DNA of 24,235 nt. Origin: Patellaria atrata CBS 101060 (Eukaryota). Shown here in pieces: positions 863 to 24,235 of the stretch. The number at the start of each line of letters is the position of its first letter. Position 1 is the stretch's first letter. A program made the translations under genes and the position numbers. A model generated the notes under the pieces. That model had not been told where the DNA came from. It worked only from the letters and a program-made list of their open reading frames with translations, and searched no databases. The DNA lies in NCBI GenBank assembly GCA_010093705.1, contig MU006090.1, positions 1,949,817 through 1,974,051 on the forward strand, read 5' to 3'.

Positions 863-1311
863 TGCAATTCTTGCATGTGAAGGGGAAAAGAACGAAACGA
901 TATTATCTCTGTGATCCAAACATCTTGAGAGCAGCAGGTAAGATGGTTATAAAAGTTGTTGCTCATGGAGCTTCAGTTTTCGAAAGAGATGGCGGCTCGA
1001 ATTGGTGAGGTCATTTTGGTGAGGTGTGCACGGACTCTTTGTCGATGGATTTCACGTCTCATTAGGTTGGAATACAGAGACAACCGGTGAGTGTTAAGAG
1101 TCATTGGGTTCTATGCTTACGGTCTGCTAATATCTATTCCGCTAGTTCCGAGTATGAGGCTTGGATATGGAGATCAATACAGTGTAGTGGATGGGAGACA
1201 TCGGGGCGTACTGTACGGTACTGTAAGGTCCCTCACCGAGTCACTACTCAGAATCTCACCAGCTAACACACGCTGAATATATGAATTGGTGAAATTGAGG
1301 GTCACGCAAGG

Positions 1312-1348
1312 TGGCTGGATATCAGATGGCTGGATATCAGATGGTTGG
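1312..1348. repeat. Short tandem duplication (TGGCTGGATATCAGA x2 plus a partial third copy)
   Basis: Two exact 15-nt copies at 1312-1326 and 1327-1341, followed by TGGTTGG. Confidence 0.85.
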
Positions 1349-1562
1349 GGACCAGGATAAGTGAGATGGTTGAGCAGGCAATACTATAAGATAGCACAGG
1401 CACCCACTCCAGATAGTTGACAATCAATGAACACTCTTACCCTTCTATCTACTACCTTAGCTCATACCTGTGTGGATTTTATCATGAATAGCACGGCATG
1501 TTATTAGGCTGTACGCGCTCCAGTTTGTACAGTACAGTACAGGCCAGGCGTGCAGAGATGGA

Positions 1563-1701
1563 GCCATCCAGTAAGGGCCATCCAGTAAAGGCCATCCAGT
1601 AAAGGCCATTCAGTAAGGGTCATTCAGTGAGGGCCATTCAGTGAGGGCCATTCAGTGAGGGCCATTCAGTAAGGGCCATTCAATGAGGACCATTCAATGA
1701 G
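1563..1701. repeat. Minisatellite, ~10 copies of a 14-bp unit (consensus GCCATTCAGTRAGG)
   Basis: Units start at 1563, 1577, 1591, 1605, 1619, 1633, 1647, 1661, 1675 and 1689, with no spacers. Confidence 0.95.
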
Positions 1702-2142
1702 CATTCAGGGGATTAACGACCCGTACTTGCGCTGTACAGTACACAAGATCATTATGGTACATGTACATGCGAATAGTAGATTCTTTTGAAGTGATAAAAA
1801 AATTCCTTGACAAAGGATAATCGGAGTCGGGTTTTGCAGAGGTTGTCCTTTATACTGTACGCCTTGTCCGTACTGTACCGTACAGTAGACACCTCCGGTC
1901 CTCCGCAACTTAACCACGCATCCGTACATACGTATGTATATGTCCATATCTTACCCATCAAGGAAACCTGTTTCTACCCGTACAGAAGACGCGCGCCTAC
2001 ATAAACCACTGTAGTTACAGTATATCTTCGTATAATGTTCTGGAGACGAGATGAGATGAAGAAAATCAAGAAAATGAGAAACGGTCGGTTCATCTCAAGT
2101 TCCGCCAAGACGAGCTGCCACGTCCACGTTTTTCGGCAATTT

Positions 2143-2152
2143 GACCAATCAG
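2143..2152 (+). promoter_or_regulatory. CCAAT box (candidate Hap/CBC site) upstream of the giant ORF
   Basis: GACCAATCAG matches the extended CCAAT consensus. It directly precedes a C/T-rich stretch typical of fungal transcription start regions. Confidence 0.45.
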
Positions 2153-2572
2153 TGACATCGCCTAACCTTGAATTCCCCTTTTGGCCTTCCCATCTTAAAT
2201 CTTGACAGCCAACAACTCATCCCCGTCAAAGGTCAAGTCAACCTTCAATTCTATCAAACCCTCTTACCCTCCCGCAATGCTGCTCCAACCCGGCAACGCG
2301 TCAAGAAACATCTTGCATACCCAAATTTACCCCTCAGTCTCTCCTTTCGCAGAACTACACTCTCTTTTGTAATACAACTTAATCATCAGCGCGTCAGCTC
2401 TCAACACTCATTACACATCCCCGGACTGAACGCGTCTGCTTGGCTGGACAAGCTCGAATAGCTACAACACCACTATCCTGACCGTATTCGTATGGCCATC
2501 GCAGGTTCCATCTCTCTCCGATAACTATCGTGGGAGGTTTGGACTGCTTCTGTTGAGTAATTGGTCCTTTGG

Positions 2573-5500
2573 ATGCAAGCTCGACGAGCCTTTACCCCCT
2601 CTCCGACCCTACCGTCATCACCGCCTCCTTTCCCTACGAGCCAGGATCGTTCAAACGTAGGTCCTACAGAGGACCGGCTCGATTCTTCCCCCGCGCGGAC
2701 TCTTTGGACGGCTCCCTCGCCTACCCAGACTCTTGGATACTCAAGCCCAGAGCTCCCTGGCTTACCCTCACTCCCCAATCTAGGGGTTGTGTCTAATAGT
2801 CCGTCTTCTTCGGTTCAGCATCCGACTGATACCTCATACTACACTGCCAGTTGGGGTTCGCCATACAGGAGACCACCACCGGGTGTTGCGCGATCGGCGG
2901 AATACGGATCCTGGGGTTTGAATAGTGACGAAGTAGAGGGTGAATCCTCAGAGATACAATTCGGGTTAGATCATCTGCTTCCATCTTTAGTCGAGAGGGA
3001 TCCAGAGTTTGGACTGGAACATCTCTTGCCCTCGCTTCTCCCTGCCGAGATTCAAGCAGAGCTGGTAACACCTACGCGACCGTCCCATCCCACAGCTCCT
3101 GAACAAGTACAAGCTACTCCTCGCCCTATCGATAGATCATCACTCCGAGACCTTGATCAGAGCTTCTTTACTGATTCCGGAAAGGACTGGATCAGAGAAT
3201 ATATTACCAGTCAGTTGGACACAGAGGAGGGAAAACGGTGGAGCGACGAGTCTGGAGACAGTAAAACTCAAGGTGGGAGCACGAGAAGACGTACACCGCA
3301 GGGCAAGGAGTTCTTACTGGCTGAAAATTCGAGCAATACCACATCGCCTTTGGCGCAGCGACAGAAGCCAAAGACACATAAGTCTCGTCAAAGTAATTTG
3401 ACCCTGAGACAAGAAGATTTCTTTGAGCTCCTCAACCAGAAAGGAAAGCAAGAGTTCGAAAAGATGATGTCCTCAAGGTACGCAGATCCTGCGGTAGCAC
3501 AACAAGCACCCACGCGAAAACCAGCTTCTTCTGTTGCGGTTGAAAAACCACTCCCTCCATCCCCCGATGCTGCTGCTCAACCTTCATTGCCTCGCCCGAA
3601 TGGGCGGATTCAACTCTCCAGACACGATCCAAACTTCGGCAAAAGTCAGCCGACTATGCCTCTTGAAAATCACAACTCAGTCGATGCTGTACCCCAAGTC
3701 GCGGAGCCGGTTCCCCAGCAGGTTGAGACTAAGCCTCCGCCCCAGAGTAGCACTCCAGTCCCCCGACTCAAGAAACGTGTTCTTTGGCGAGGTAGGAATT
3801 GCATGATATTGATTCCTCGGGATCCCACTAGGGGCACTGAAGGAGGTCCTCCCAAACCTCTTGAACCGTCAGAAGTAGCTGCTCGCTTGCGAAGATATGA
3901 GTCAGCAGGTTACGATGTCCGAGGTTATGATCACCGTCAAGGTGAAGATGACTTTGTGGAGGAGAAGGGGACTGCTCAGAATCGAGAAATATACCCAACC
4001 CCAGAGGAAGACTATGAAGTTCGAAAGAGCAAAAACTTCGTCGTCCATGTCCCAAACAGAGCAGATTGGGAGGAATATATGAACTTCCTCACCGAGCAGA
4101 AGCTACGAGCATTGGGTGTTTCGTTGGGCGACGACGAACCACAAGAATCACCTGTTCTATCCCGTCGATCATCCTCTCAATACCCACCTTTACCATTCTC
4201 TCCTCCTATACCAACATCATCTTCAGACAGTCAACGACCAGTATTCCCTGGCGTTATTAGGACCGGGTCATTCCCTGTTGGTCCTTCCCCTGGCCATTCG
4301 TCAACCCGCTCAATCGCGTCACCTATATCGATATTTGGTAACCCTAGAGGGGCTATGCAGCATATGCACCGACACTCGACATTCACTTCTCCGGCAAGTT
4401 TCATGCATAAACAATCGAGTTCACCTGGAATTTCGACATGGTCTCCACAGCAGTATCTTAATCAACAGGGTTTTGCGCGAGGGGGTTCACCTGCTCTTCC
4501 TCCGCTTCCTAACAGTAGGCCGGACCTGTCAGACATTGTATCTCCCAATTCTCCATTTGGATCGAAGGCACAGCAACAATTTCCTTTTCCTCAGCAGAAC
4601 GATGTTCTGTTAGCCCAACTTCAGCAGCAGCAACAACTTTTGCAGGCGCAACTCATGCAGCAGCAGCAGCAGCAGCAGCAGCAACATGGTTATTCTAATA
4701 CACGACCATCGTCAACGCTGCAGGAAGTTCCAGAAGCTGAATATGAGGATGAACCACCTGTTCAAAATAATACCGTTGCACGTGAAGATCCGGTAATTGC
4801 GGTTCCTCAGCCACGCGGTCACCAACACAACATCAGTGCAGGTCTTGAACGCGACATTCACAGTGCTGAATATCATCTAGAAAAGGCGATTGATAAGCAA
4901 CTGGATGAAGGTGGTGACTTTAACACTGAGTCTAGATTTGGAGAGCCCGGGCTTGTGAAGAATGCCCAACCGAAAGCAAATGGAGAAATATGGCATGATA
5001 GGACCATGCCTGTGCAACATATCTTACATCAACCACAACCTCACAATAGGGCTCATTCTTTGACTAAGAGACCACAGTCCGGCACGCTTGATTTTGGGAT
5101 CGATGAAGGCCAATCCATTGCCGAAGATGATACAGTCAATGCTAAGAGTCCCTCCGAAGTCGAGACCAACCCTAGCGTAAATGGTGATGCTGATGGTAGC
5201 ACTCTTCACTCAAAGAAGCCGTCAGAGATTATCAACTCTTGGAGTGATGGACAGCTACCACGGGAGAATGCTGAGCCACAGTTAGCAAATCACCACCCTC
5301 GCCCAAGCCATGTATCCAAACCATCAATGTCGAAGCTCAATGTTGAAGCGAAGGAGTTCAAGTTCAACCCAGCGGCATCCTTCAGTCCTAATAGCTTTAC
5401 ATTCTCCGCATCGTCTTTCGAACAGTCGAAGGCTTCTGCGCCATCATCTCATGTGGCAAGTAACCAACACTCCACTAAATCATCCGTGGAGGGTATGTCT

Positions 5501-8500
5501 AGGACTTTGAATGTCGAAGCACCAAGTTTCAAGCCGAGTGGTTTCACAAACTTCAGCATGCCCACCGGCGAATTTTGTTTCTTGTCCAAGGGGCTATCTT
5601 TCAAGCCAACTGCGCCCGAGTTCAAGCCAGGCTCTTCCGTCTCCAAAACAGTGACAGATCCTGTTCCCGAGGAAGCGGAAGATCCTAACCGTATCTTTAA
5701 ACTGAAGTTTGGAGAAATTGTTAGGCCTGCTAAGCAATCGAAAGCTGTCCCGATTGTACGACCCGATCGAAACGCTCATATGAATGATGAATCAATCCAA
5801 GAGGACGAATTTGGCCGGCTAGGTCAAGCTGACGGATATCAAAAACGCGTAAGGAGAGGACCTGGTGGGGATGGAAATGATGTTCCTCAGTTTGCTATTC
5901 CCACTCATCCTCTAAGTGAGACGACCGACTTCCAGACCATCAGGAAGGACGAATCAAGGGATCAGAAAGTAAAACCTTTAGACAAGGAAAATGTTGCGCC
6001 AGATGACGGATCCGATGTTGCTCAACACTCCAGCGCAACGCCGTTCGCGCTTCAAGAGAAAGCGAACATGGGTACGGTGGATATACCTTCTCTCGATCAA
6101 AATCTGCCCAGCTTTCCAGCACCTTCTCAAAGAGCCGCGTCAGCAGAACCTACAGCCCCTATCAAGAAGCATGCAAGCAAGAACTCTTTATCTGCTACTG
6201 CGAAACCATTCGAGTTCAGATCGAACAATGGAGCTTTCGACTTTGGATTGCACGTCACCAAACCTTCATTCGAACAGGCTGATAAGGTTGAGCGGAGCCA
6301 ACAACTGGCGAGCGAAACTCCAACGCGCTTTCAAAGCAGAAGTCCTGCCACAACTTTCCGGCACAGTGATGATGGTTCATACAAGACTGCTCCGGAACCG
6401 AGAAGACACCTTCCGTATCCTGATAGCGAGGAGGGTGATTTCGATTCTTTTGTTCCTCCTACATACCAAGAAATTGATGACGTTATGAAACAGTTGGATG
6501 CAGAAGGATCCGATTTCGGAATCGTACAAGAGGAGGAGTCATGGGATCAGTCAAGTCCAAAGAGATTATCCAGAGATTATGATCCGACTGACCTTAGACC
6601 CGTACAACACTTCCGTAGTGATGCTCCAAGCCCAAGCCCTCGTCGTCTCTATACAAACACGCTAGATACTGGTGCTACCTCCACTCCAGTTACTCATGAT
6701 CCATTCAGTGATGAACGCGCAGGGCAAGCATACGAATCTCCCGTACATCGTCTCAACGATGGAGATGATATTCCTATTAGCGAGTGGGGTGATGTTGTAT
6801 CATCAACCGAGGAAGACAAGTTCCATTCGAGGATTAACTTCTTCGATAGTCACGTTGATAATCTTATCGGTGCGGTACTATCAAAGCGTCTAGATCCTAT
6901 AGAGCAGACACTACAAGCTGTTCAGGAATCAATTGGTCTATTTTCGCAACCTGACTATGCTAGACGTTCTCGGCGTAGTGCTTCTGCTATGGAAAGTGAC
7001 GCCGATGATGAGGATGATGAACTACCTGCAGAATCTAATCTCCGGAACAGATCACCACGGAAGGATCGTAAGCTGGAGAAGATGCGAAGCATTATTGTCG
7101 AGGCTCTTGCAGCTTATCAGCCCCAGCAAGAAATACGCGAATCTCCTTCCATTGATCCCACCGAGTTTTACCAGGCGCTTGCGGATATCAAGACCTCTTT
7201 CGCAAGATCAACTGCGACGAATGACTATATCGAGAATATCAAAGAAGTCATCCAAAGTGCATTGTCTGATCAGCAACTTGCAGTCATTGAGAGTCGCGAA
7301 AATGATATCATCAATGAAAGCACTACACGTATTTCGGAGCTAGAGAACGCTTTGAAGGAGGCCAACCTACGGTTGGAGTCTGAAGTTGAAAATCACCGTT
7401 CTACACAGCAACGACATAATGATACTCAGCGATTACTAGATCTAACCGAAGAAGAATTGAGCCTTCTCAAAGAGTCTTCAAGAGACGACAGGAATAAACT
7501 TCGAGCTGCTACAGAGGAAATACATTCAGTCAGGTTGAATAGTGTAACTTTAGAAGCAGCCCAGGATGATTTACGTAAGAAGCTGTCCGCAGTTACTGCT
7601 CAAAACGAGGCGCTGGAAGCTACACTAGAGGAATATCGGATTTCAAGCGCGCAGTGGCGGAAAGACATTGATGAAGCCGACCAGGAGAAGTCTCGTCTAA
7701 AGAGTGTTACGGCTGCATTACAAATACAAATTGAAGAGGCCATGCAGATTAGAAGTACGATGCGCGACAGACTTGACATTCTGCAAAGAGAGATGATCAC
7801 CGCTGCTGGACAGGTAGCTCATGAGAAATCTCAATGGCAAGATGAGATCCAAGAACACCGCACGAGATATGAGATATTAAGTGCCAGGATCGAAGCCGAA
7901 GCCCGCACTCGGGAGAGATTAGAAAAGGAAATGGAACGGCTTGAGTTACAGGAGCGGGAAGCTATGAGGTTGAAAGTTACGTTGGAACATACTCAACACG
8001 CTTATTCCCGTCTTGAAGAAACCGTTAATACTTTGCGTCTCGAAAATACAGAGCACCAGAAGACAGCTGAACGCTATGAGCGCGAATTCCGCGAAGCTCG
8101 AGATGCTGGCCGTGTAGAAGTAGAACGCACCCGGCGCCTTATGGAGGCCGACGTTGAAAACGCCAACAACCAAGTTAACATGGTCCGTGCAGACCTCGAA
8201 AGAGAGTTGACTAGAGTTCGAGCAGAGCTTGACAGCGTTCGTATGGAAGCTGATACTACTAAAGAAAAACATGCACTCATGCTCGAGCAAGAAGCTGATG
8301 CGCGTAGAGATGCACTACGTGAAGCTAGCAATGCTCGTAACATCGCTTTCAAAGAACAGCATCACAAGTACGAGCAACATGTAAATGAGCTCAAACAGCA
8401 ACATAGCAGGGCTATCCATATCGCACACGAGGACAAGGAACGTGCGGAACTACATCTTAATGAGCGTCTTGCTCTCTCTGATGCTAAGGTTGAACATCTT

Positions 8501-9460
8501 CGAGATAAAGTACTGCACTTGGAGGAAAAGCTTGAAGTCGCCAAGTCTGCTGCACAAGCTGCTGTTGAGGCTGCCAAAGCCGCCAAAGTTCCAGCATCTG
8601 CAGTCTCTTCTGGTTCATATGAGAAGGTCTCTCCTCAAGCGCTCCGTGAATCTATTCTCGTCTTGCAAGAACAGCTTCAGGAACGAGAGGGACGAATCGA
8701 GAGCCTCGAACACCAATTGTCATCGCTTGACACTGAGGCTCCGAACAAGTTGAAGGAGCGTGATACTGAGATCGGTTGGCTTAGAGAGCTCCTTGGTGTT
8801 CGTGTTGACGACTTATCTGATTTGATTACTGCTCTATCACAACCAGCGTATGACCGCGAGGCGGTGCGGGACGCTGCCATTCGCATCCGCTCCAACTTGC
8901 AAATGGAGCAACAAGAGAAGGAAAGATTGATCAATGGTGGTCAAAACTTCCCTACTCTCGCAAGCTTATCCAATTTCGCTTCTCCAAAAGCAGTACAACT
9001 TGCTGCCGCATTCGGGAACTGGCGTAAGGGAAATGGGTCGAGTAAACTAGCACAGACTTCATCTTCGAATTCCAGCCGAACTCAGACGCCATCGAAACCA
9101 TCTCCAGCAGTCTCTACTCCAGGGTTCTTGTCAGGACTCATGACTCCTCCAACATCTAACCTCCGCCGTACACCGGAACCCAGCAGTGCCGGTGCTTCTA
9201 AAGCACCACAAATGCCTACAGGACGGCTTGAGCGTGGATTAGATCTCCCCAGCTTGTCTTCAAGACGACAGGAGAAGCAAGCTATCCCATCAACCCCGCC
9301 ACTGTTACGCAAGGCATCATATGATCGCGATGCCGAAGATGGGGATTACAGCGTCAATGGTTTCTATGACGACGAAGAGAGTACTATGGATGGGAATCCT
9401 GCAGATAGACAGGATAACTTTTCGAGATTTGGTCCAGGACTTCATTCTCAGTTGTCCTAA
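2573..9460 (+). CDS. Intronless ~2295-aa protein: disordered S/P/Q-rich N-terminal part, 4-5 PAM2-like motifs and a long C-terminal coiled coil. I recall this family being auto-annotated as myosin class II heavy chain, but it has no motor domain
   Basis: Continuous 6.9-kb ORF. The first ATG is at 2573 (the track start at 2561 is TTG). Contains polyQ and a heptad-rich E/R/K/L/A region of roughly aa 1590-2130. No myosin P-loop (GESGAGKT). Confidence 0.9.
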   Translation: MQARRAFTPSPTLPSSPPPFPTSQDRSNVGPTEDRLDSSPARTLWTAPSPTQTLGYSSPELPGLPSLPNLGVVSNSPSSSVQHPTDTSYYTASWGSPYRRPPPGVARSAEYGSWGLNSDEVEGESSEIQFGLDHLLPSLVERDPEFGLEHLLPSLLPAEIQAELVTPTRPSHPTAPEQVQATPRPIDRSSLRDLDQSFFTDSGKDWIREYITSQLDTEEGKRWSDESGDSKTQGGSTRRRTPQGKEFLLAENSSNTTSPLAQRQKPKTHKSRQSNLTLRQEDFFELLNQKGKQEFEKMMSSRYADPAVAQQAPTRKPASSVAVEKPLPPSPDAAAQPSLPRPNGRIQLSRHDPNFGKSQPTMPLENHNSVDAVPQVAEPVPQQVETKPPPQSSTPVPRLKKRVLWRGRNCMILIPRDPTRGTEGGPPKPLEPSEVAARLRRYESAGYDVRGYDHRQGEDDFVEEKGTAQNREIYPTPEEDYEVRKSKNFVVHVPNRADWEEYMNFLTEQKLRALGVSLGDDEPQESPVLSRRSSSQYPPLPFSPPIPTSSSDSQRPVFPGVIRTGSFPVGPSPGHSSTRSIASPISIFGNPRGAMQHMHRHSTFTSPASFMHKQSSSPGISTWSPQQYLNQQGFARGGSPALPPLPNSRPDLSDIVSPNSPFGSKAQQQFPFPQQNDVLLAQLQQQQQLLQAQLMQQQQQQQQQHGYSNTRPSSTLQEVPEAEYEDEPPVQNNTVAREDPVIAVPQPRGHQHNISAGLERDIHSAEYHLEKAIDKQLDEGGDFNTESRFGEPGLVKNAQPKANGEIWHDRTMPVQHILHQPQPHNRAHSLTKRPQSGTLDFGIDEGQSIAEDDTVNAKSPSEVETNPSVNGDADGSTLHSKKPSEIINSWSDGQLPRENAEPQLANHHPRPSHVSKPSMSKLNVEAKEFKFNPAASFSPNSFTFSASSFEQSKASAPSSHVASNQHSTKSSVEGMSRTLNVEAPSFKPSGFTNFSMPTGEFCFLSKGLSFKPTAPEFKPGSSVSKTVTDPVPEEAEDPNRIFKLKFGEIVRPAKQSKAVPIVRPDRNAHMNDESIQEDEFGRLGQADGYQKRVRRGPGGDGNDVPQFAIPTHPLSETTDFQTIRKDESRDQKVKPLDKENVAPDDGSDVAQHSSATPFALQEKANMGTVDIPSLDQNLPSFPAPSQRAASAEPTAPIKKHASKNSLSATAKPFEFRSNNGAFDFGLHVTKPSFEQADKVERSQQLASETPTRFQSRSPATTFRHSDDGSYKTAPEPRRHLPYPDSEEGDFDSFVPPTYQEIDDVMKQLDAEGSDFGIVQEEESWDQSSPKRLSRDYDPTDLRPVQHFRSDAPSPSPRRLYTNTLDTGATSTPVTHDPFSDERAGQAYESPVHRLNDGDDIPISEWGDVVSSTEEDKFHSRINFFDSHVDNLIGAVLSKRLDPIEQTLQAVQESIGLFSQPDYARRSRRSASAMESDADDEDDELPAESNLRNRSPRKDRKLEKMRSIIVEALAAYQPQQEIRESPSIDPTEFYQALADIKTSFARSTATNDYIENIKEVIQSALSDQQLAVIESRENDIINESTTRISELENALKEANLRLESEVENHRSTQQRHNDTQRLLDLTEEELSLLKESSRDDRNKLRAATEEIHSVRLNSVTLEAAQDDLRKKLSAVTAQNEALEATLEEYRISSAQWRKDIDEADQEKSRLKSVTAALQIQIEEAMQIRSTMRDRLDILQREMITAAGQVAHEKSQWQDEIQEHRTRYEILSARIEAEARTRERLEKEMERLELQEREAMRLKVTLEHTQHAYSRLEETVNTLRLENTEHQKTAERYEREFREARDAGRVEVERTRRLMEADVENANNQVNMVRADLERELTRVRAELDSVRMEADTTKEKHALMLEQEADARRDALREASNARNIAFKEQHHKYEQHVNELKQQHSRAIHIAHEDKERAELHLNERLALSDAKVEHLRDKVLHLEEKLEVAKSAAQAAVEAAKAAKVPASAVSSGSYEKVSPQALRESILVLQEQLQEREGRIESLEHQLSSLDTEAPNKLKERDTEIGWLRELLGVRVDDLSDLITALSQPAYDREAVRDAAIRIRSNLQMEQQEKERLINGGQNFPTLASLSNFASPKAVQLAAAFGNWRKGNGSSKLAQTSSSNSSRTQTPSKPSPAVSTPGFLSGLMTPPTSNLRRTPEPSSAGASKAPQMPTGRLERGLDLPSLSSRRQEKQAIPSTPPLLRKASYDRDAEDGDYSVNGFYDDEESTMDGNPADRQDNFSRFGPGLHSQLS
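4658..4684 (+). repeat. Coding (CAG)8CAA microsatellite encoding Q9, preceded by a Q5 run
   Basis: Read directly; translates as LQQQQQLLQAQLMQQQQQQQQQH. Confidence 0.95.
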
Positions 9461-10150
9461 ATTGGAACTCAGCAAATATGAAACCCTTTCTTTTGTTAAA
9501 CAATTTCCTATGTAAAGTCTCTTTAGCCGTGTCCATTCATTTCATTTTGGTTTTTGATACCCTGGACAGCGTACAGAATGGACAGAACGGTACAGAAATA
9601 TCCATCAGATTGTATAACTTCTCCTTGCACGTGTACTTGCTTAAATTGATAACTCGCGTCTACGTACGCTTGCTGTTTCTCCTTCTATCTTTGCTCTTGG
9701 AAAAATGGGTGATGGGGGATGGCAGTCTTGTCAAATACTTTCTCTCCTTATGGTGCATAGCGCGGCGAGCTTTTCGGGCGCTGTCCTTCGTTTCGGAATA
9801 TCGATGGTTGGAGGAGGTGCGAAGGTGACTTTTTGTAGCTCAAAATAATAGAGGTCTTATATGTTCTGTGGTTTTTCTGTTAGTACATGTGGTGATTGAT
9901 ATATCTGTGGCACCAATTCCCAACCTAACTAACATTATGCATGTGATATACCATTATAGATTCAATTCAGTACATACAACAAAACTGTGCGGTACAGGTA
10001 TCAGATATCACGGAACTTATTCCGAAGATAGCCGGGCCGAAGGTGAGATGCCGCAAACTCCACCTTACATCCGACTATGATGTAGCCTCTTCAACTTTCC
10101 TTAAACTCTACCCCCAACATTTCTCTTTTAACAAACATCCACCGATAACC

Positions 10151-10718
10151 ATGGATCCAGAAGCGAAATCCAAATACGCAATCCACGAAGCATGCCGGGA
10201 AGGCAGAAGTACGCATCTCAAACGCATCCTCCCCAACCACCTCGAATTCCCCACTAACAATCACTGTCCCACAGCCGCCGAAGTCGAAGCCCTTCTGAAC
10301 GTAAGCGTTCTCCCCCGCGGTCTCACACTCGCCCCAGATCCCTGAGTAAAACTGCAGGCAAACCCGCGCCTCGCGACCCGCCGCGACGAAGACGACCGTC
10401 TCCCCCTCCACTGGGCAGTCAGTTACAACCGGCTCCCCATCGTGCGGTTATTGGTGCTGAGTAAGGAGTTTGACGTCGATGCGCAGGTGCGCCCATGTTT
10501 TCCTTCTTCCACACCCCTTTCCTCGCCCTCCCCCTCCGCCCCGGTGTCTGGTGTACAGTATTGTACTGTACGATACCTAAGGATAGGATAAGGGAACTGA
10601 TAAGGGATAGGACGGTCTAGGTTGGACGCCCCTAATGATGGCCGCGAGTCTACGGGACGGAGAAGAGGTGCTCGAACTGCTGTTATCACGGGGCGCGGAG
10701 GTTAATATACAAAGTAAT

Positions 10719-10750
<32 letters not shown>

Positions 10751-11496
10751 TTTTCTCCATTCTCCCTTACCTCCCCCTCGCATCTTAACCCACTCCCTTT
10801 TCCCCTTCCCTTCTACAACCCAAAGACTAACCCCCTCCCCAAGCACACACAGGCCAAACAGCCCTCCACTTCGCCTCCTCCAAAGCCCTCCTCCAAACCG
10901 CGCGCACGCTTTTAGCGCACGGCGCCTCAACGCGTCTGAAAGACAAACGCGCACAGCTGCCCCTCCACCGCGCCGCCGCCGTCGGCGCCGTGCCGGTTCT
11001 AAAACTCCTGCTCGCGAACCGGAGTCCGCTTGACGCGGGGGACGTCGATGGGTTGACGGGGCTGCACCATGGTATGTACTACCATCCTAGCCTACAATAT
11101 ACTGTACCGTACTATACCGTATACTGGGGTTTGTAGTGGTGGAAGTCCCTAGGGAAGGGAAAGGGGGGGCCCCGCAGTCTTGATAGATGTTACAAAGTGC
11201 TGATGTATACTATACAGCTATATCGGAAGGTCACGCGGACGCGGCCGTGTTTTTGCTTAAGGAGGGCGCTGTGGCGGATATTGTTGATCGGGAGGGAAGG
11301 AGGGCGTTGGAGTTGGCACCGGATGCGAAGGTGCGTATATGCTCTCCTGTACTGTTCTGTGCTGGATCCCGGTTATGCGCTGTGTAGAGATGGTTGGATG
11401 GGGGGTTAGGGTTATTGGGTATGCTGACATTTTGGGTGGTAGGTACGGGATTTCATACTGCGGAGTGCGGAGAGGGAGGGTATAGATCTGGGATGA
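10151..11496 (+). CDS. NAS6: Ankyrin-repeat 26S proteasome assembly chaperone Nas6/gankyrin (PSMD10), ~236 aa. Exons 10151-10208, 10275-10300, 10358-10486, 10611-10713, 10844-11071, 11218-11330, 11443-11496
   Basis: The hand-spliced CDS is 711 nt and stays in frame: MDPEAKSKYAIHEACREGRTAEVEALLNANPRLATRRDEDDRLPLHWAVSYNRLPIVRLL...DGLGWTPLMMAAS...GQTALHFASSK...KDKRAQLPLHRAAAVG...DVDGLTGLHHAISEGHADAAVFLLKEGA...APDAKVRDFILRSAEREGIDLG*. All six introns are GT-AG with branch-like motifs. GWTPL, TALHFAxSK and PLHRAAAVG are gankyrin hallmarks. Confidence 0.92.
10720..10750. repeat. C31 homopolymer in NAS6 intron 4
   Basis: 31 consecutive C beginning 6 nt after the start of the GTAATA donor at 10714. 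Confidence 0.95.
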
Positions 11497-11745
11497 GAGT
11501 GGGGAGTGAAAAATAGGTTGAGAAGTGTACGAAGGTCGGTTGGGTCGGTTGGATGTGTTAAGGATATCTAACAGCGTGAAGTCGGACCGCTTTTCTAAGC
11601 TCTACCTACCTTCCCCATATCCACGCTAAATATGCCCCAAAAGACTTAGAGAGAAATAAGAATATGGCAAGAACCAGAACACGACCAGACGTCAACCTCC
11701 CAAGCACCCCTCTGAACCGGCTTTTCCACCCACACCCACGGAAAC

Positions 11746-14492
11746 TCACTTCACAGTACTCTCAACCAACTCTCTATAAATCCTCTTCAAATCCACCACA
11801 TCCGCCCTGAGTTCCTCAACCTCCTCGCTCTTCTCCCCCAACATCTCAAGCGTAGTCGCATACCTAACGCCCACCTCCTCCAACTCCCTCCTCATGCCCG
11901 CAACCCTCTCCTCAAGGCCCCTCTTCTCCTCCACCTCCCTTAAGAGCGCGACGACCTCTTCCCGCGCCCCGTCCCGCTGCGCCGCCAGCCTCGCCATCTC
12001 CTCTTTCACCACCGCCTTCTCGGACTCAAGCCGGCGGACGGCAGCGGACATGCGCTCGACGAGCTGGACCGAGGGCCCGGCCCCGGAGGCGCTGGTCGAA
12101 AGCATGTCTGCGATTGTGCGGTGGGGAGAGGACGTGGAGTCGAAGGCATCGTCGGGGTCGAAGGCGTGGATGGAGGGGGTCTGGGAGACGGAGCCGAGGT
12201 GGGATGGCGCACCATTGAGGTGTGTGGAGAGGGAGGGGAGGGAGTCTTGTCTCAGGGGTGGGGTGCCGGGGTGAGGCTGGCGGGAGGAGCGGCGCGATTG
12301 GGAGTGTGAGCGTGTGTCAGGGATGGGGGGAGGGGAGAGGGCGCCGACTTCTGAGGAGAAAGTGCGGGGGATGGGGCGGCGGTATGTGTTTTGTTCGCCG
12401 AAGGCCGGGGAGGGGGAGTGGTGCCGGCGATGGGGTTGGGAGAGTGAGGCCCCTGTCGTCGTGGGCGATTGGAGGTATTGCCCCGAGTCGACGAGCCCGA
12501 GGCCCTGATGTTGACTGTTGTTGATGTTGCTACTTTCCAGCCGCCATTTCAGTTTCTCGTCTTCGACCCGTTGCGTCATTTCCGCCTCCCACACCTTCTT
12601 CTCCTGCTCGAAGGTCTCTTTCGCGTCGTTGAGCGCTGTTTCCGCGCCGCTGAGTCGACTTTGCAACTTCGTCATCGCGGCGGCTTGCTCTTGCATATCG
12701 TGCTCCAAAGATCTCGCACGGTCGTGCACCGCTTCCAATTCCTCTTCCAGCCGGCGGGACTTCGAATTTACATCTCTCGCCTTGCGACGCACGTCAGATT
12801 CGCGTTTGACGGTCTCATCACGCTCCTTTTCGAGTGCTGCGACACGGGAGGTAAGTGTGCTTTCGATACCGTGCCAGTTCTCGCTAGCGAGGGCATATTG
12901 AGTCTGCAGGGTTTCGATTTGACGGAGTAGTTTGGTTTGTGTGTCTGTACCGGCGGTGGATTCTTCTGTGCGGGAGCGGAGGAGTTCAAGTTTGGTTTCG
13001 AGGCTCTAGGGGTAGAGATGTTTAGCGTACATAGACAGTAAATAAGGTATGGAATAAACTTACTGTAATTTCACCCCTCAACTCGATCTCCATTACCTTC
13101 GCGTGTTCCTGCTGCCTCATCGCTCCCTCCTTGACATCTTTGATCTCTGCTCTCGCCCGATCTTCTACCAGCTTCTTCTGTATTTTGGTGTCTTCGATCT
13201 CATCCCGCAAGTCAGACACGATTTTCCTCTCCGCTTCCAAGGCACCGATCTGCACCCTCTTCTCCGCCTCCTCAGCCCGCGCGTCCGCTTCCGCGACCTG
13301 CCGTTTCAAATCCACGATAACGCGTGCCGCATCCTCTTTCTCGTTCCGTAAGGCCTCGACATCCTTCTCAATCCGACCCAACACCCTCATCCTTTCCGCT
13401 GCCGCCTTCTCCGCCCCTTCCGCCCTTTTGGCTCTCTCTGTCGCCTCCAGCAGCTGACGTTCGGCATTAGCCAATTTGCGTCTCAGTTCCGCGTTCGCCT
13501 TTTCCTCTTCCCCCTTTTGAGCTCGTAGCTTTTTGATCACGTTCATGTGCTTCAGCTCCGTTTTGGACAACCTCTGACCCTCATCCAGCAGCAGCGCGAT
13601 TTGCTCATCTTTGTCAGCTAGTTTGCGCTCCAGACTACCTGGGTTAGCGTTTAAGGCGGTATTATGAGCGGCTTCTGCGGCGGTGCGGGAGAGGTATTGG
13701 AGTTTAGCTTGCAGTGCGTCGATCCGTTCTAGGTGGGAGTGGATTTCGGATGCCTGCGTTGCGTGGGCTTCGCGGAGTTGGGAGAGTTCGAGGTCAGAAT
13801 CAATAGCGGAGAGTCGGGTAGGGGATGGAGGCGAGGTATCTGCATGCGTTGCGTCCAGGGAGGGGCGGGGAGATTCGAGGGATTGGCGGGGGGAGGCTTC
13901 TGGTTTATTTTCTGCCGGTTGGACTGCGATTGTGATATCTGTGGGTTGCTCAGGAGATGGTTGTTCTGTAGGTGCTGGTAGGGGCTTAAGTGGTTCAACA
14001 GGTTCGGGCTCGATCTTCGGTTCTGATGGTTCGTCATTTGCAGGTTGTGAAGCAGCAGCTTCGGCCGGGGCTTCAGAAGCCTTCGAATCGATGCTAGAGC
14101 GAGTAGTTTCCCCGTCTATCCCTGGTGTAGCTGTCCTGGAGGGCAACTCAGACGACTGCCTGCTGACGGGTCTTTGCCCATCCGCGCCCTTCACCACAGC
14201 CTTCGCCAGCCGTTCTTGTAGTCGATTATTAGTTTGACTTCTTGTCGAAGACGTCCTCGATATGCCTGTTCTTTGCATTAGCCCCTAGTCTTCTCAGCTC
14301 AACTGCAAATTCCGAACCTTGGTCAGTTGCTTTTGACTGACGCGCTGCTACCTCTACCGCTCTACTCTTCGCGGAGGCTTGATCATCTTCCGCTAGAATA
14401 GTGTCGAGCCTCGACTCCAGACCTGCAACGGCGCCGGAGAGTAGGGATCCCCATCTTGAGCCTTTGTTTTGTTTGGTGGGTTGTGCGCTCAT
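11746..14492 (-). CDS. SGM1: TMF1/Sgm1-type golgin (coiled coil with C-terminal TMF_TATA_bd/Rab6-Ypt6-binding domain), ~878 aa. Exons 14492-14318, 14265-13064, 13005-11746
   Basis: Three ORF segments are joined in frame by a 52-nt intron (GTTCGG...GCTAAT...CAG) and a 58-nt intron (GTAAGT...TAG). Motifs: N-terminal WGSLLSGAVAGLESRLDTIL; KDEQIALLLDEGQRLSKTELKHMNVIKKLR (TMF_DNA_bd-like); C-terminal GPSVQLVERMSAAVRRLESE...RYATTLEMLGEKSEEVEELRADVVDLKRIYRELV. Confidence 0.9.
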
Positions 14493-18855: not shown

Positions 18856-19026
18856 CTAGTTGCGAATTGCCCTCTTAAGTCGCGCTACGAGGCAGTTTGA
18901 CTTGCGGGTAAGCGAGAAGACGCGAGTTGCGAGCGCAGCGTCATGGAGTATGTTGAAGTATGAGACGATGTTCTGGGTATGGATACAGGTATCCTCGATT
19001 GCGTGCAATGATATGGCTTGCAGCAT
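18856..19026 (-). promoter_or_regulatory. Candidate 56-aa uORF in frame with SCAP, with its stop codon directly abutting the SCAP ATG
   Basis: The minus strand reads CCCACAATC-ATG CTG CAA GCC...ATT CGC AAC TAG ATG ATC TGG, with no internal stop. It depends on the transcription start lying upstream of 19026, which is not known. Confidence 0.5.
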
Positions 19027-19321
19027 GATTGTGGGTGAAATGGAAAATAATGACTATACAGGGGACCTGCATCTTGGGGGCTTGAGACTTGTGAATACGC
19101 GGGCCGCACTGCTTGGCTCTTCGATGCGGACATGCGGGTTGTTCTTTTACGCCTCTGCGCCTTCTGCACTGGGTGCTGAAGAGCCACTTTTGGGGGTGGA
19201 AGGAGGGGCGCTTAAGGGGGTACTGGGGCGATATACAAACTGGGAACCTCGGTGGCTTTTTCTCCTAGACCTGGTGCAACTTGAATCGGACCAGGAAGGA
19301 CATTGATCTAAAGCTTCAGTT

Positions 19322-19329
19322 TTTATATA
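19322..19329 (-). promoter_or_regulatory. Candidate TATA box (TATATAAA) for SCAP within the SCAP/Pol lambda divergent promoter
   Basis: The minus strand reads GATATATAAAAAC, followed about 100 nt downstream by a C/T-rich tract. Confidence 0.4.
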
Positions 19330-19780
19330 TCTGTACACCTTTACAGGTACTTGTTGTACTGTACTGTACCTCGTCATTTCACATGTCAAGGGCACGGACG
19401 ATGAGCTCGAGCGGGTAATCGAAGCGGGAAGATCATTGAGCATGGGCTCTCCCCAAACTCACTCCCGTCTCGATATAGTTCTACCGTAAGGTACTGTCCT
19501 CGACTGCAACCGCAAAGTAACACAATTCACCAGAGCCTTCGAAGCAGAAAAGATGTCAAAGTCGTCAATCAACAATTCGAGGATGAAGTCTAGGTTGAAA
19601 TACTACACTACCACTCCTTCCTGGCGAATTACATCCCGCAAGACACGTCTTGCTGCCTTCGCGTACTGACTCGTGACAAAGTTCTTTTGTAGCACAGAAG
19701 CCCTGCTCCCCAAGTATAATAAGAGGGCCAGCTCTTTATGTTGCAACTTATATTCCCAGTATATAATACAATCTACCATC

Positions 19781-22233
19781 ATGCCTTCCATTTCTCTATG
19801 CGCTCACAAGAGAAGGGTATTCGACGAGTTGTCTGCTCTTGATGACGATGAGGTCGAAATTGAGCAGGAGGATGACGGTCTTAATGAGTCCATGCAGTTT
19901 CTTAGTGCTTCTCGAAAGAGGAGAAGAATCGCGAAGGAATCCGCAATTGGGAATAAGAACAAGCCCAATGCAGCTCAGCTGGGACAACCTATACTAATCT
20001 CCAACATACGGCGTACAGTTTCGCTGCCCGAACCACACTCAACGGAGGAGACTTTCAAACCTGCGCCTGAAACATTCAGGCGCAAAGAGCCTCGAGAAGT
20101 ACAGCAGGGAGTGACAGTAGTTAAGAATACGCCAGTGCAACCCATCCACAGGCTACGACCGATCCCATCGTCGCACAGCTTCAGCATTGTTAAGGATACA
20201 CCTACTCGGACTGACGCAGATGTTAACCTCGGGGGTACCCTGGTGCATGACGAAGACATAGTGACCAAAGAGACACCTACATCTTCGGTTCCAAAATGGA
20301 ATCCTCCTCGATTGGTTCAGTCAGTTTCCGCACCGGTCTTATCCGCATCCACGCCAACCTCGTCTATCCCGATGATGAAAGGGAAGAGAAACAAGGGTAA
20401 GGAAGAAAAAATAGTAAAGCAACCTGAAGCTCGACAAGTCTTCAAGGGAATGTACTTCTGTAAGCAATCATCAACCCAATCATTGATCCATGCGTTGACA
20501 AAGAGTAAGACTTTTATCCCAATAACACCATCAACGAAGTTCGCCGAGTAAGAATTATCAAGGCCATCGAATTCGGCGCTGAATGGGTCAAAGACTGGCA
20601 AGAAGGTATTACTCATGTAGTAGTAAGCAAAGGTCACACGTACCCACACCTCCTTAAATTTCTCAAGATGCCGTCACTACCTGTAAGTCCCATTGTAACT
20701 AACGATAACAAATAGCTAATGTGTTAGATCGATATCGTTGTGGTTAATGACGACTTCATTCCTGGTTGTATTGAGTATCGAGGCCTGATGAGTATGGAAA
20801 CTCTCAAAGATATTCACCAAGTTGAGGGGCATAAAACAAATATGGCACCTCCTGACATACCGTCATCCAGTCCAGATACGCGAAGATCGTTGCAAATAAA
20901 ACCATCGAAGAAGCAAATGCAACCATCCCAGACCCCGTCTGTGACGGAGCAGAGTAGCCTTGAGGTTGCTCACGCCTTGAGAGCAGCTGATGAACGCTCC
21001 CTCGCTCAACTACCGACGGGAGCAGCTGATCCTTTATTTGAACTTATGAAAGAAGCTAAGGAGCTGCAGGAATTACCTATTGATACTGAGGATGAGGATT
21101 CCAACGCAGCGATCAGCCCTATCGAAGATGACTCAGACGAGTCATCTCCAAAGAAAGGATCTAAGGCTAGTGCATCAAGAGATGGGAACTCGTGGCAAGA
21201 TAATTTTCAATGCATGCACAAGAACACCGGTATGGGTGGTTCGGATAATCCGAATGCTCGCACTATTCAAGTCTTACAGCAAATGTGCGAGTACTATAAT
21301 AAAATGCAAGATCAATGGCGGACTATCGCATATCGCAAGGCAATTGCTAGTCTTCGCAAGGAGACCAAGAAAATCTCTACACGGAAGGAAGCTCGGAATC
21401 TCCCTTACGTGGGGGAACGACTTGCGGCGAAAATCGAGGAGATATTCTTTACAGATAGATTACGCCGGCTGGACAACGCACAGCAAGAACCTACAGACGC
21501 TGTGTTACAGATGTTTATGAAGATTTATGGTGTTGGATTCTCCCAAGCATCCAAGTGGGTTAACCAGGGTTACAGAAGTCTCGAGGATTTATCAGCTCGG
21601 GCAAAGCTTACTGAGAATCAGAGGATCGGTATTCGGCATTTTGAAGACTTCAATAGTAGGATCCCTAGAAAGGAGGTGGAACAGCATGGTAAGATCGTGC
21701 GAGAAACGCTCCAAGCAATGGATCCGGCATTTGAGATTACCATCATGGGATCTTACAGGCGTGGGATGAAGGATTCTGGGGACATCGACCTCATCATCAC
21801 CAAGAAAAACGCTAGTCTCCAAGATATCCGGAGCATAGTCATCACTACACTTGTGCCCAAGCTGTCAGCGTTCGGTTTCTTGAAGGCGGGACTAGCGACA
21901 ATGTATAATGACAGCGGAAGTAAATGGCACGGTGCTTCAGTCCTACCAGGATCTAAAGTGTGGCGGCGAATCGACCTTTTACTCGTCCCTTGGAATGAGA
22001 TTGGGGCGGCCATGCTCTATTTCACAGGTAATGATATCTTTAATCGGAGTATCAGACTTCTGGCCAGCAAGAAGGGCATGCGTCTTAATCAACGAGGGTT
22101 GTACAAGGACGTATCTCGTGGACAGAACCGTCAGAAGCTTACGGAGGGTACCTTGGTGGAGAGCCGAAGTGAGAGAAAGATATTTCAGATCCTGGGTGTG
22201 CCTTGGAGAGATCCAGTACACCGTATTTGTTGA
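19781..22233 (+). CDS. POL4: Family X DNA polymerase lambda (Pol4-like) with BRCT domain, ~785 aa. Exons 19781-20459, 20510-20682, 20728-22233
   Basis: ATG at 19781 in a good context (ACCATCATG). The BRCT region FKGMYFYFYPNN...RIIKAIEFGAEWVKDWQEGITHVVV is restored by 50-nt and 45-nt introns. Also present: lyase domain DQWRTIAYRKAIASLR, HhH LPYVGERLAAKIEEI, and catalytic motifs GSYRRGMKDSGDIDLII, RRIDLL and YFTG. Confidence 0.95.
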
Positions 22234-23223
22234 TAGCCTTTGGAAGAAGCTTTGGGAAGTTTGCCTCCTTGGTTCAGGGTATGGACGGCCTAATCACCTA
22301 ATAGAGTTTATAGGGCATCTTGGATAAGGTAGAAATAGCAGGTTCCTGCATTAGCTGGCAAGCTTCGCCACATATATAGCTCTGAGAGTGGGTGGGCATG
22401 TGATGAATGGATGAACGCTTTGAGAATACATAGGGCTTGAAGCGGAGAGTAGGAGGTGAGCTTTCCAAAATGATAAGCCCCACGATGATCCTTCCAGCAG
22501 CCACTATGGTGTGTATGGTCATGCTTTGCTACCTTGGCCAAATTCACCGTTAAGTACTGGACCGATCTCATCCGTCCCCCTAGTTTGTCTTCTCACCGCA
22601 AGTCAATCCCCAATTCATACTGTTTTGGGTCAGAAAGAGTCGGATATTTTGTACGGAAGTATAGAATATCTCATCCTGATCTCTGTTTCTTCTCCATCCC
22701 ACTTGAAACATGATCGAATACATACTTTCACGCATCTGGGTGTTACCGCCCTCTAACCCTCTTCATCGAGGGACATCAACTCCCCCGCTTAAGGTAGCCA
22801 ACTGTGGCCGCAATAAATAAGCAAAACAAAGGCAACCTAAAAGGTCCCCCGCGCCGTGTTAGTGGTCAAAAGTGATGGTTCTCTCTTCCCTTAGTTCCTA
22901 ATCCCCTAAGCGATTCGCAGTGTGGCCAACGATCCGTATCGATAAGGTATTAGTATTCTCGGTATTTCATCGGTATTGTATCGAATATCATAATACCTTA
23001 ACAATACTCTTGGCATTTTAAGATTTTTTAATATTCTTTAGAATTCAACTAAAATATTATCGTTTTCTTAGAAATTTAATTAAAATAAAGATACTCTTCG
23101 TACGAAGGGATTATATAGCTATGAATAACATCTATAGCTGTTCTAAGATAGAAGGCACGAGGGCGTGCCTACGTGCCTGCCTGTCCACCTGTCTACTGGC
23201 CCACCTGCCTACCTGCCAATTTG

Positions 23224-23351
23224 TATAAAATACATCTTTTTTTTGAATTTCTCTTCTTCTCTTCTTCTCTCCTTCTCAATCTTTGATTTTAGTAACTCAA
23301 AGTGTAAGTACTCAGCTTAAACCTATCGTACGAAGGCTAATAAGACTATAG
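23224..23351 (+). promoter_or_regulatory. Core promoter (TATAAAA and CT-rich tract) plus a 48-nt 5'UTR intron for the DUF3716-like gene
   Basis: TATAAAA at 23224-23230; CT-rich run at ~23248-23277; intron GTAAGT (23304)...GCTAAT (23336)...TAG (23351), ending 1 nt before the ATG at 23353. Confidence 0.65.
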
Positions 23352-23352
23352 T

Positions 23353-23873
23353 ATGGCCAATACGCAAGTAGTTCTCTATAACCCAGCGATCACGGCTGCC
23401 GCTCACGCGAACCGCAACCCGGTGCTACTCGTAACACAGCAGCAATTGGCTCCGTGGTGTCACAGCCCACAGAATAGAGCACTTCTGGCCGTCGGTGGAG
23501 GTGTTGATGTTGAGTTCGTACGTGACTCTATCACACCGAGCAGATTGGATCTCATAGGCAGTCATATGTCAATGGGATTCTTATCCAGTCTCGTGGAGGT
23601 GACGTTGATCCTTGTGCGGCTTGTCGTACGAGAGATTTCCGTCCCTTCCTTAGTTGTCACCGCGCTGAGGGACACTTTGGCGGAACATGCGCCAACTGCA
23701 AATGGCGCGACCATACAGCACGCTGTTCCGTACGAGCTGGTGGTCCAGATAAGCCTGCTCAAGGAGCCAGGGTGCTTGGACCTGGTTCAGGGGTTGACGG
23801 AGCTGACGGCACCGCCCCTGGGAATGCTATTGTGCTGGATGACGATGAGGGGCTACTCCCCAAAATGCTATAA
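23353..23873 (+). pseudogene. DUF3716-like six-cysteine (zinc-cluster-like) small protein gene with the reading frame split near 23537 (frameshift, or a 44-nt intron at 23518-23561)
   Basis: The ATG frame gives MANTQVVLYNP...RALLAVGGGVDVEFVRDSITP. A different frame continues EQIGSHRQSYVNGILIQSRGGDVDPCAACRTRDFRPFLSCHRAEGHFGGTCANCKWRDHTARCSVR...GNAIVLDDDEGLLPKML* (TAA 23871-23873). The SYxNxILIQSRG...PC..C...PF..C....GHFGGxCxNCKWRDH..RCS pattern matches DUF3716 as I recall it; not HMM-verified. Confidence 0.7.
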
Positions 23874-24235
23874 TCATTGGTTGAGCAGAGCTTCGTACGA
23901 AGTATTCTTTGGCGTTTAAGCGTTCTGGCGTTTCGGTGTTCTGCTTTGCCTAGCTATCCAGGGCTGTTGGTAGCACTCAGACGTGATCTGTACCTTTACG
24001 TGTGTCTGAGATCAGTAGCCATTAGGTGAAACTAAACAAATCGTACGAACCTTTCAATAAATTTTTTTGTTTTGCCCAATGTTTAAGACATTCAGTATGT
24101 TCTAACTCTCTTGAACTTAAGCGTGATCTTTCCCATGATACCGTACGACGAGCTGCTGAAAACACTCGTTCTGGTTCATCGCTCATTGCTGGAATTGAGA
24201 GGATCTCAATTGCAAGTATAGATAATCGTGGAAAC

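Follow-up and report, generated by a model that had tools for sequence, protein, structure and literature searches.

An evenly spaced CGTACG palindrome array associated with the DUF3716 gene of a hAT transposon in Patellaria atrata and with DUF3716 genes of unrelated transposons

The VANC proteins of the Arabidopsis VANDAL (Mutator-like) transposons are anti-silencing proteins with target motifs, and the accessible part of their description demonstrates both motif binding and anti-silencing (Hosaka et al. 2017, PMC5735166). In fungi, the available portion of the account of REP9, an IS3EU-type transposon of Zymoseptoria tritici, attributes two DUF3716 genes to this element (PMC8232023). A third report, consulted in part, concerns a 19-bp element of the Pfcyp51 promoter of Pseudocercospora fijiensis, which contains the word TCGTACGA and with which expression rises in proportion to the number of copies, the promoter repeats being linked to fungicides (PMC6637983). 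Here we analyzed a stretch of 24,235 bp of Patellaria atrata CBS 101060 (assembly GCA_010093705.1, contig MU006090.1, positions 1,949,817 to 1,974,051 of the forward strand), referred to as the window. Its right end holds part of a hAT transposon with a gene of the DUF3716 family and an array of the palindrome CGTACG. DUF3716 is a widespread fungal domain without known function, which is now linked to a testable cis partner, an 8-bp palindrome. This link is new, and no account of the pairing of gene and array was found in the literature searched, supplements excluded.

CGTACG occurs nine times in the window (at 9663, 23099, 23327, 23517, 23625, 23729, 23894, 24042 and 24142), whereas 100 dinucleotide shuffles of the whole window gave a mean of 2.75 copies and a largest count of 8, none reaching nine. 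Eight copies lie in the 1,318 bp of the transposon (22918-24235), for which Markov models of order 0 and 1 predict 0.21-0.25 copies, a model of order 2 predicts 0.64 and one of order 3 predicts 1.77; the remaining 22,917 bp hold one copy against 2.5 expected (order 1). A first-pass annotation, made from the letters of the window, had reported eight copies in about 1 kb and one elsewhere, at 9663, and both the exact count and the shuffles agree with it. The 8-bp palindrome TCGTACGA is found at five of the eight element sites, YCGTACGR fits seven, and only one variant with a single mismatch to CGTACG, at 23168, is present in the same part. The sites are separated by 228, 190, 108, 104, 165, 148 and 100 bp (coefficient of variation, CV, 0.30), and this evenness was matched by only 0.25% of 20,000 random placements. 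Their positions relative to the element and its two genes are as follows.

22918-24235: left 1.3 kb of the hAT transposon, delimited by contig depth and breaks and continuing past the right edge of the window
23099-23104: CGTACG site 1, within CTTCGTACGAAG, non-coding, upstream of the DUF3716 gene
23327-23332: CGTACG site 2, non-coding, leader region of the DUF3716 gene, within a putative intron (GTAAGT...TAG) at about 23305-23352
23353-23873, plus strand: DUF3716 gene, frameshifted, starting with the ATG at 23353 in frame 1 and passing at about 23538 into frame 3, with the stop codon at 23871-23873
23517-23522: CGTACG site 3, DUF3716 coding sequence, Phe-Val-Arg, codon phase 2
23625-23630: CGTACG site 4, DUF3716 coding sequence, Arg-Thr, phase 0, directly after the CxxC of the domain
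23729-23734: CGTACG site 5, DUF3716 coding sequence, Ser-Val-Arg after the last Cys, phase 2
23894-23899: CGTACG site 6, within CTTCGTACGAAG, non-coding, between the two convergent genes
24022-24234, minus strand: C-terminus of the hAT transposase, the last 70 codons plus the stop codon (24022-24024), with the dimerisation domain
24042-24047: CGTACG site 7, inside the hAT transposase coding sequence
24142-24147: CGTACG site 8, inside the hAT transposase coding sequence, with a contig breakpoint (loose end) at 24142

A perfect 12-bp palindrome, CTTCGTACGAAG, occurs twice, at 23096-23107 and 23891-23902, and an 83% copy lies at 23324-23335. The first-pass annotation had taken the two perfect copies for brackets of the gene; they are present as described, but they are ordinary members of the array without a special flanking role. 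The array itself was thought to cover and bracket the DUF3716 gene, and instead fills the whole interior of the transposon, the transposase gene included. As to the placement of single sites, that at 23517 is coding, like those at 23625 and 23729, and the supposed sites in the 3' flank (24042 and 24142) belong to the transposase coding sequence.

To see the array in other contexts, we used 80 metagenome loci (L numbers below), fetched solely by a peptide pattern of the DUF3716 domain and falling into 55 non-redundant clusters. An array was defined as five or more CGTACG within 2 kb of the gene with a Poisson P below 1e-4. In their 514,851 bp the 80 loci hold 949 copies of CGTACG against 64.7 expected, and in 52 of them no other palindromic hexamer is as strongly over-represented. 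Arrays are present in 35 of the 55 clusters: in 32 of the 38 with an intact six-Cys open reading frame (ORF), against 3 of the 17 with a partial or degenerate match. The palindrome is therefore tied statistically to the six-Cys DUF3716 gene, as had been proposed from the window, and this across unrelated transposon classes; most of the homologous clusters, which might have lacked the enrichment, carry an array.

Neither composition nor descent readily accounts for such a word. For each ORF, 300 synonymous-codon shuffles were made that left the encoded protein and the codon usage of that ORF unchanged. In 16 of 17 array-bearing transposon ORFs of the metagenome loci the number of sites exceeded all 300 shuffles, the exception being the pogo ORF of L001. 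The Copia ORF of L051, for example, has 45 sites, where its shuffles average 6.7 and never exceed 12; the Gypsy ORF of L018 has 28 against 3.8. Five control ORFs, from a long interspersed element (LINE), a Helitron, an NLR-like gene and two of the window's host genes, were at or near chance, with 0-2 sites. In each of the window's own two short coding pieces there are 2 sites, where about 0.16 would be expected; 2 of 300 synonymous shuffles reached this number. Sites fall in the three codon phases in the proportion 109:59:101 and encode Arg-Thr, x-Tyr-x or x-Val-Arg; of the 22 distinct DUF3716 domains that have x-Val-Arg after the last Cys, 21 encode it as nnC-GTA-CGn. At 699 sites the word was preceded by T (63%) or C (25%) and followed by A (58%) or G (22%), with little beyond. 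The 615 gaps between the 651 sites of 36 arrays had a median of 139 bp, at 6.7 sites per kb; their CV was 0.634 against 1.006 for simulated random placement (minimum 0.880 in 1000), and only 5% of the gaps were under 40 bp against 22% at random.

An origin of the enrichment in chance, base composition, codon usage or common descent could draw on the three sites in the DUF3716 coding sequence, which stand at the conserved motifs FVR, CRT and SVR and could be inherited; the position homologous to site 3 (-34 relative to the first Cys) carries CGTACG in many loci. Against it, no dinucleotide shuffle reached the count of the window, the spacing is far more even than random, and the 16 ORFs never equalled by their synonymous shuffles encode unrelated proteins. 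Since the shuffles and the unrelated ORFs show that composition, codon usage and descent are not the cause, which for codon usage had been stated in the first-pass annotation, we regard this origin as having practically no chance of being right. The array is very probably a selected, DUF3716-associated feature. Repeat-induced point mutation (RIP) was considered as a maker of the word and rejected, the composition indices of the element being unremarkable and the CpG content of L066 normal.

The elements that carry the arrays were classified by Pfam on 67 long ORFs of the metagenome loci.

hAT elements with arrays: L004, L024, L025, L037, L041, L044 and L047
Ty3/Gypsy elements with arrays: L014 (41 sites), L018 (35) and L053 (46)
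Copia elements with arrays: L023 (13 sites) and L051 (57)
Crypton-like element with an NDC10_II recombinase: L038 (26 sites, 25 of them within 9394-13039)
IS3EU-like element with rva_4: L028 (18 sites)
ORFs with OrsD and a DEAD helicase: L039 (41 sites), L048 (30), L060 (42) and L076 (23)

The only gene common to these array-bearing elements is DUF3716. It mostly lies on the opposite strand just past the 3' end of the main ORF, an arrangement also seen in the window, and the DUF3716 ORFs of L014, L018 and L051 lie in this way beyond the 3' end of pol; in L025 and L001 the gene has the same orientation as the main ORF. The arrays stop with the element: 17 of 19 sites of L004 are within 9429-12766, all 24 sites of L047 within 660-4085, and 21 of the 22 sites of L025 between its inverted repeats (2644-6356). 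In L053 only 2 sites fall in 3.3 kb of a LINE, against 44 in the Gypsy element beside it, and the Helitron locus L065 has none. The hAT-borne DUF3716 genes stand at four or more places in a tree of the domain, most deep forks of which are weak; with 60 columns this tree is too short to give the number of moves between transposon classes.

hAT elements have short repeated transposase-binding motifs near their ends, and the sites might be such subterminal repeats, the more so as the window shows only one end region of its element. However, no site is present in the terminal 181 bp of this element. The ends of three related hAT loci (L004, L025 and L047) are also free of CGTACG over 131-499 bp and have family-specific subterminal repeats instead. 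The sites run through the whole interior, and the same word is found in elements lacking a hAT transposase (Gypsy, Copia, Crypton-like, IS3EU-like and helicase types). On these grounds the sites are not hAT subterminal transposase sites in our judgement, and we give that explanation very little chance.

The OrsD-type ORFs with DEAD/Helicase_C domains, of about 1,350-1,560 amino acids where complete, each lie beside a convergent DUF3716 gene. These loci may represent a mobile element that is based on a helicase, or else a family of telomere-linked helicases.

L039, 2971-7359: OrsD-helicase ORF
L048, 816-5483: OrsD-helicase ORF
L060, 1-4065: OrsD-helicase ORF
L076, 494-6017 and 11365-15345: OrsD-helicase ORFs, split into shorter ORFs

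The extent of the carrier in P. atrata was mapped with assembled contigs of four public runs (X1-X4), which were compared with positions 19000-24235; X1 and X2 are runs of the likely source organism, X3 and X4 runs labelled as two other organisms. One long contig spans 19000-22946 and stops there, with a depth of 321 in X1 and 445 in X2. Right of the boundary, contigs with exact matches have depths of 2135-3303 (X1) and 4378-5309 (X2), and others diverge by 11-13%. Two contigs in each of X1 and X2 match rightwards from 22918 and have unrelated sequence on the left, and an X3 contig begins at 22918 with 0 mismatches. Position 22918 is the end of a repeat with roughly ten near-identical copies plus diverged ones, the depth of the element contigs, about 7-12 times that of the single-copy contig, being a proxy for the copy number and not a count. 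The element begins at 22918 with CAGTGTGG, an end of the CAG type as in the hAT loci L004, L025 and L047. The transposase piece matches Pfam PF05699 (E 3.1e-12, 46.5 bits against a cut-off of 21.4) and is 67% identical to the hAT ORF of L004; its gene, on the minus strand, is convergent with the DUF3716 gene on the plus strand and leaves the window. The suggestion that the segment belongs to a larger mobile element continuing beyond the window is thus borne out by the hAT end at 22918 and the transposase C-terminus at 24022-24234, and the contig depth shows a multi-copy element where a single-copy region would have spoken against it. hAT elements make 8-bp target-site duplications, and a candidate was found just outside the end.

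22910-22917: candidate 8-bp target-site duplication, GCGATTCG
22918-23098: terminal and subterminal part of the element, 181 bp, AT-rich, with 0 CGTACG and short repeats of the GGTATT / TATCGA type

A 29-nt imperfect inverted repeat lies within 22936-23007 of this subterminal part. In the source runs a 78-bp stretch of the AT-rich subterminal part is missing from one or two element copies, the joint (23017 to 23096) falling exactly at the first CTTCGTACGAAG. Matches without mismatch to parts of the element were found in X3 (22918-23499 and 23583-24235) and X4 (22948-23102), and would reflect either close relatives or recent movement of the element between species. The composition of the element (TA/AT 1.0, (CA+TG)/(AC+GT) 1.05) is accompanied by transitions in both directions among the copy variants. 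Among the 40 variant positions listed, of 64 in diverged copies, none falls in a CGTACG site, from which we draw no claim.

These contig data bear on the proposal that the sites are enzyme signals, either for cleavage or recombination or as targets or blockers of a DNA-modifying or repeat-sensing genome defence. Three contig breakpoints coincide exactly with sites (the joint just mentioned and loose ends at 23096 and 24142), the word contains two CpG and a central TA, a spacing of about 140 bp puts a site in every short stretch of an element, and the element copies of this genome are near-identical and not visibly mutated by RIP. Breakpoints at conserved words are nevertheless expected, since alignments of diverged copies begin at a shared motif, and no nuclease or methyltransferase domain was seen by Pfam in the DUF3716 protein. 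We therefore consider enzyme signals an improbable explanation of the array.

The DUF3716 protein of the window matches Pfam PF12511 with an E-value of 1.4e-12 (47.8 bits against a cut-off of 22) over profile positions 2-59 of 59, and a Pfam scan at E up to 1 gave nothing else than a weak Agouti match. Frame 1 aligns with residues 74-132 of the homologue P0004 and frame 3 continues from residue 133, so that on these alignments the window copy has a one-base frameshift at about 23536-23540. Other copies of the element in the same runs have one extra base at 23535-23538, and intact DUF3716 copies are therefore probably present in the genome. An intron at 23518-23588, starting from the GTACGT of the site at 23517, was considered and rejected, as an alignment of 35 homologues and pairwise comparisons show continuous coding. 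All six Cys are present in the window copy (CxxC-x10-C-x10-CxxC-x8-C), and in the homologue alignments the Cys columns are invariant or near-invariant and are accompanied by an N-C-K-W motif. The likeness to zinc-cluster proteins of the Gal4 type (Zn2Cys6), on which the first-pass annotation had relied, did not hold: there is no match to the Zn_clus profile, the spacing differs, and only the number of six Cys is common to both.

With an E-value limit of 0.001, a search of 1.84 billion representative proteins gave 175 relatives, of which the best shows 52% identity. They are small proteins with a conserved N-terminal part, the six-Cys domain and an acidic tail; the core has a median net charge of +6 and is positive in 75 of 75, and the tail has a median of -6 and is negative in 66 of 75. 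AlphaFold2, run on the homologue P0006 with an alignment of 86 rows, predicted one compact domain with a mean predicted local distance difference test (pLDDT) score of 81.5 and values above 90 over about residues 15-125. A fold search of the ESM Atlas returned DUF3716 clusters only. A homodimer prediction of the core with zinc gave a score of 0.00, which counts neither way. A basic core with an acidic tail would fit a DNA-binding domain with an acidic effector region. The four bases at the centre of the word are also those recognised by the SBP-box zinc proteins of plants, which we treat as a lead only. Many tails end in a short hydrophobic motif within acidic sequence (NPIVL, AIVLDDDE), and P-[IVL]-[IVLMT]-[IVLM] is found in 24 of 75 DUF3716 tails; we presume a likeness of this motif to SUMO-interaction motifs.

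A second word is found in some DUF3716 elements. L066 has 4 CGTACG and 24 TGTACA, the latter evenly spaced about 150 bp apart and mostly in the form TTGTACAA. Its CpG observed/expected ratio is 0.93, and with this normal CpG content the TGTACA array is not a decayed CGTACG array. In L058, GTACAA occurs 15 times against 1.7 expected, and TGATCA is irregular. The DUF3716 domains of L058 and L066 form a supported clade (96/84), and the two proteins have a long extra C-terminal region in common. Pfam matched nothing in the main ORFs of the elements carrying the second word, which are the following.

L066, 1-4477: element with TGTACA / TTGTACAA
L058, 4139-9028: element with TGTACA / TTGTACAA
L072, 7677-10088: element with TGTACA / TTGTACAA

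GTGCAC (L020), ATCGAT (L013) and AACGTT (L067) were rejected as alternative arrays, being short tandem repeats and not dispersed. Another word may be in use in L019 and L050, which have an intact DUF3716 gene and no CGTACG array: CGGACG / GGACGA occurs there 6-10 times against 0.5-1.5 expected.

Taken together, these results suggest that the eight element sites would be the first third of an element-wide YCGTACGR array with one site per about 140-150 bp. This array would fill the interior of a roughly 3.4-kb hAT transposon, running through both genes, and would be the cis partner of the element's DUF3716 gene, having evolved separately in unrelated element classes. The DUF3716 protein, with its basic six-Cys core and acidic tail, would recognise the palindrome, many copies would load along the entire element, and the loaded element would stay transcribed or be shielded from host silencing, as with VANC on VANDAL. 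As DUF3716 is the sole common gene, the arrays have separate origins and one clade has a changed word, the DUF3716 protein is the simplest reader, and from these sequence patterns we think it probable that it reads the word. All array-bearing elements need transcription and escape from silencing, which by analogy with VANC favours activation or anti-silencing; that this is the effect of the array we propose tentatively, at somewhat less than even chances. Taken as a whole, the combination of array, DUF3716 reader and activation or anti-silencing is the explanation towards which we lean slightly.

An alternative is that a host DNA-binding protein, for example an activator, reads TCGTACGA, so that elements accumulate the word for transcription or open chromatin, DUF3716 being a cofactor, an adaptor or an inhibitor of silencing that acts off the sites. 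The Pfcyp51 result, as far as it is available, fits such a reader, the 19-bp element with the word being a dose-dependent activator of a host gene (PMC6637983). The DUF3716 model is without a match to known DNA-binding folds, and in the window all eight sites are perfect, yet the DUF3716 gene is broken. On the other hand, arrays follow intact DUF3716 ORFs (32 of 38 clusters against 3 of 17), neighbours free of DUF3716 have no arrays, as in L053 with 2 sites in the LINE and 44 in the Gypsy element, and the different palindrome of one DUF3716 clade is unexplained by a single conserved host factor. We judge a host reader to be rather unlikely, while giving it more weight than the other alternatives.

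Several observations weigh against DUF3716 as the reader. The loci were chosen by DUF3716, and the survey covers only gene-bearing loci. Six of the 38 intact-gene clusters have no CGTACG array: L011, L019, L043, L050 (3 sites each), L058 and L066. Flanks more than 5 kb from the gene hold 70 CGTACG against 15.1 expected; much of this excess consists of further arrays, such as that at 422-7186 of L076, where any DUF3716 gene of their own would be off the contig, and the flanks are for this reason not a clean background. In the pogo-like L001, six of the seven sites surround the DUF3716 gene, with a single site in the DDE ORF. With the DUF3716 gene of the window frameshifted, the local sites would be readable only in trans. 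The switch from CGTACG to TGTACA, by its distribution in the domain tree, is confined to one clade and is a single evolutionary event. KWHD, present in L058 and L066, was examined as a residue correlate of the word and was ruled out by a relic in L072, which has KWRD beside five TTGTACAA. The DUF3716 model gave no DNA-binding or other fold match among solved structures, whether searched with Foldseek in the PDB at an E-value limit of 0.001 or with VIA-align against 48,161 chains at a Z threshold of 2. Finally, the factor that reads the Pfcyp51 word may be a host protein, in which case that result, on the part of the report at hand, supports a host reader equally.

A wider and more speculative possibility, which we hold to be doubtful, is that DUF3716 and YCGTACGR form a portable self-marking module, acquired independently by at least six kinds of fungal transposons. 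The protein would coat the element about once per nucleosome length and block repeat-directed defences (heterochromatin, methylation and RIP); changes of the word from CGTACG to TGTACA would keep lineages private, and the proteins could act in trans on host promoters such as that of Pfcyp51.

Upstream of the transposon the host genes are of ordinary kinds and encode a family-X DNA polymerase (20728-22233), a protein with a sterol-sensing domain and a homologue of TMF. An uninterrupted reading frame of 2,299 codons (2561-9460, plus strand) had no Pfam match at E up to 1e-5, and the left edge of the window (1-1000) has a G+C content of 0.60 and a GC skew of +0.48.

Among the known systems, the subterminal repeats of hAT elements resemble the array in being a short motif repeated many times in a hAT element, but the array is absent at the ends, interior-wide, palindromic and identical in non-hAT elements. 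REP9, as far as its account is accessible, is like L028 a class II fungal element of the IS3EU type with DUF3716 as extra cargo; what is available of that account gives DUF3716 no function and reports no motif array (PMC8232023). The Pfcyp51 element belongs to a host promoter and, in the part of the report consulted, is composed of tandem units of 16-20 bp, not of a dispersed transposon array, and it shows that a fungal cell is able to read the word as a signal for activation (PMC6637983). If the reading of the array by DUF3716 is right, it might explain why a multiplied promoter element with this word raises the expression of a host gene.

VANC is the nearest parallel. Both VANC and DUF3716 are accessory non-transposase proteins encoded by transposons, with a short motif concentrated in the own element; the element contains the DUF3716 gene, and the motif keeps within its limits. 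In both cases related proteins go with different motifs, and for DUF3716 the proposed outcome would likewise be escape from silencing, in so far as the VANC work at hand allows the comparison. The targets of VANC are, on the available part of that work, non-coding, often tandem repeats of one transposon family (PMC5735166), whereas the sites of the DUF3716 elements are single palindromes about 140 bp apart, running through coding sequence in class I and class II elements. DUF3716 has no sequence relation to VANC by Pfam and no fold match in the PDB, and is an analogue at most. The array shows how far a DNA-level signal can overlay protein-coding sequence, selection having maintained the word across the genes of transposons with nothing else in common. 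If the proposed function is true, it would bear on the survival of transposons under strong repeat defences and provide a signature for active elements, and DUF3716 with its palindrome would be a fungal counterpart of plant VANC anti-silencing that moves between retrotransposons and DNA transposons.

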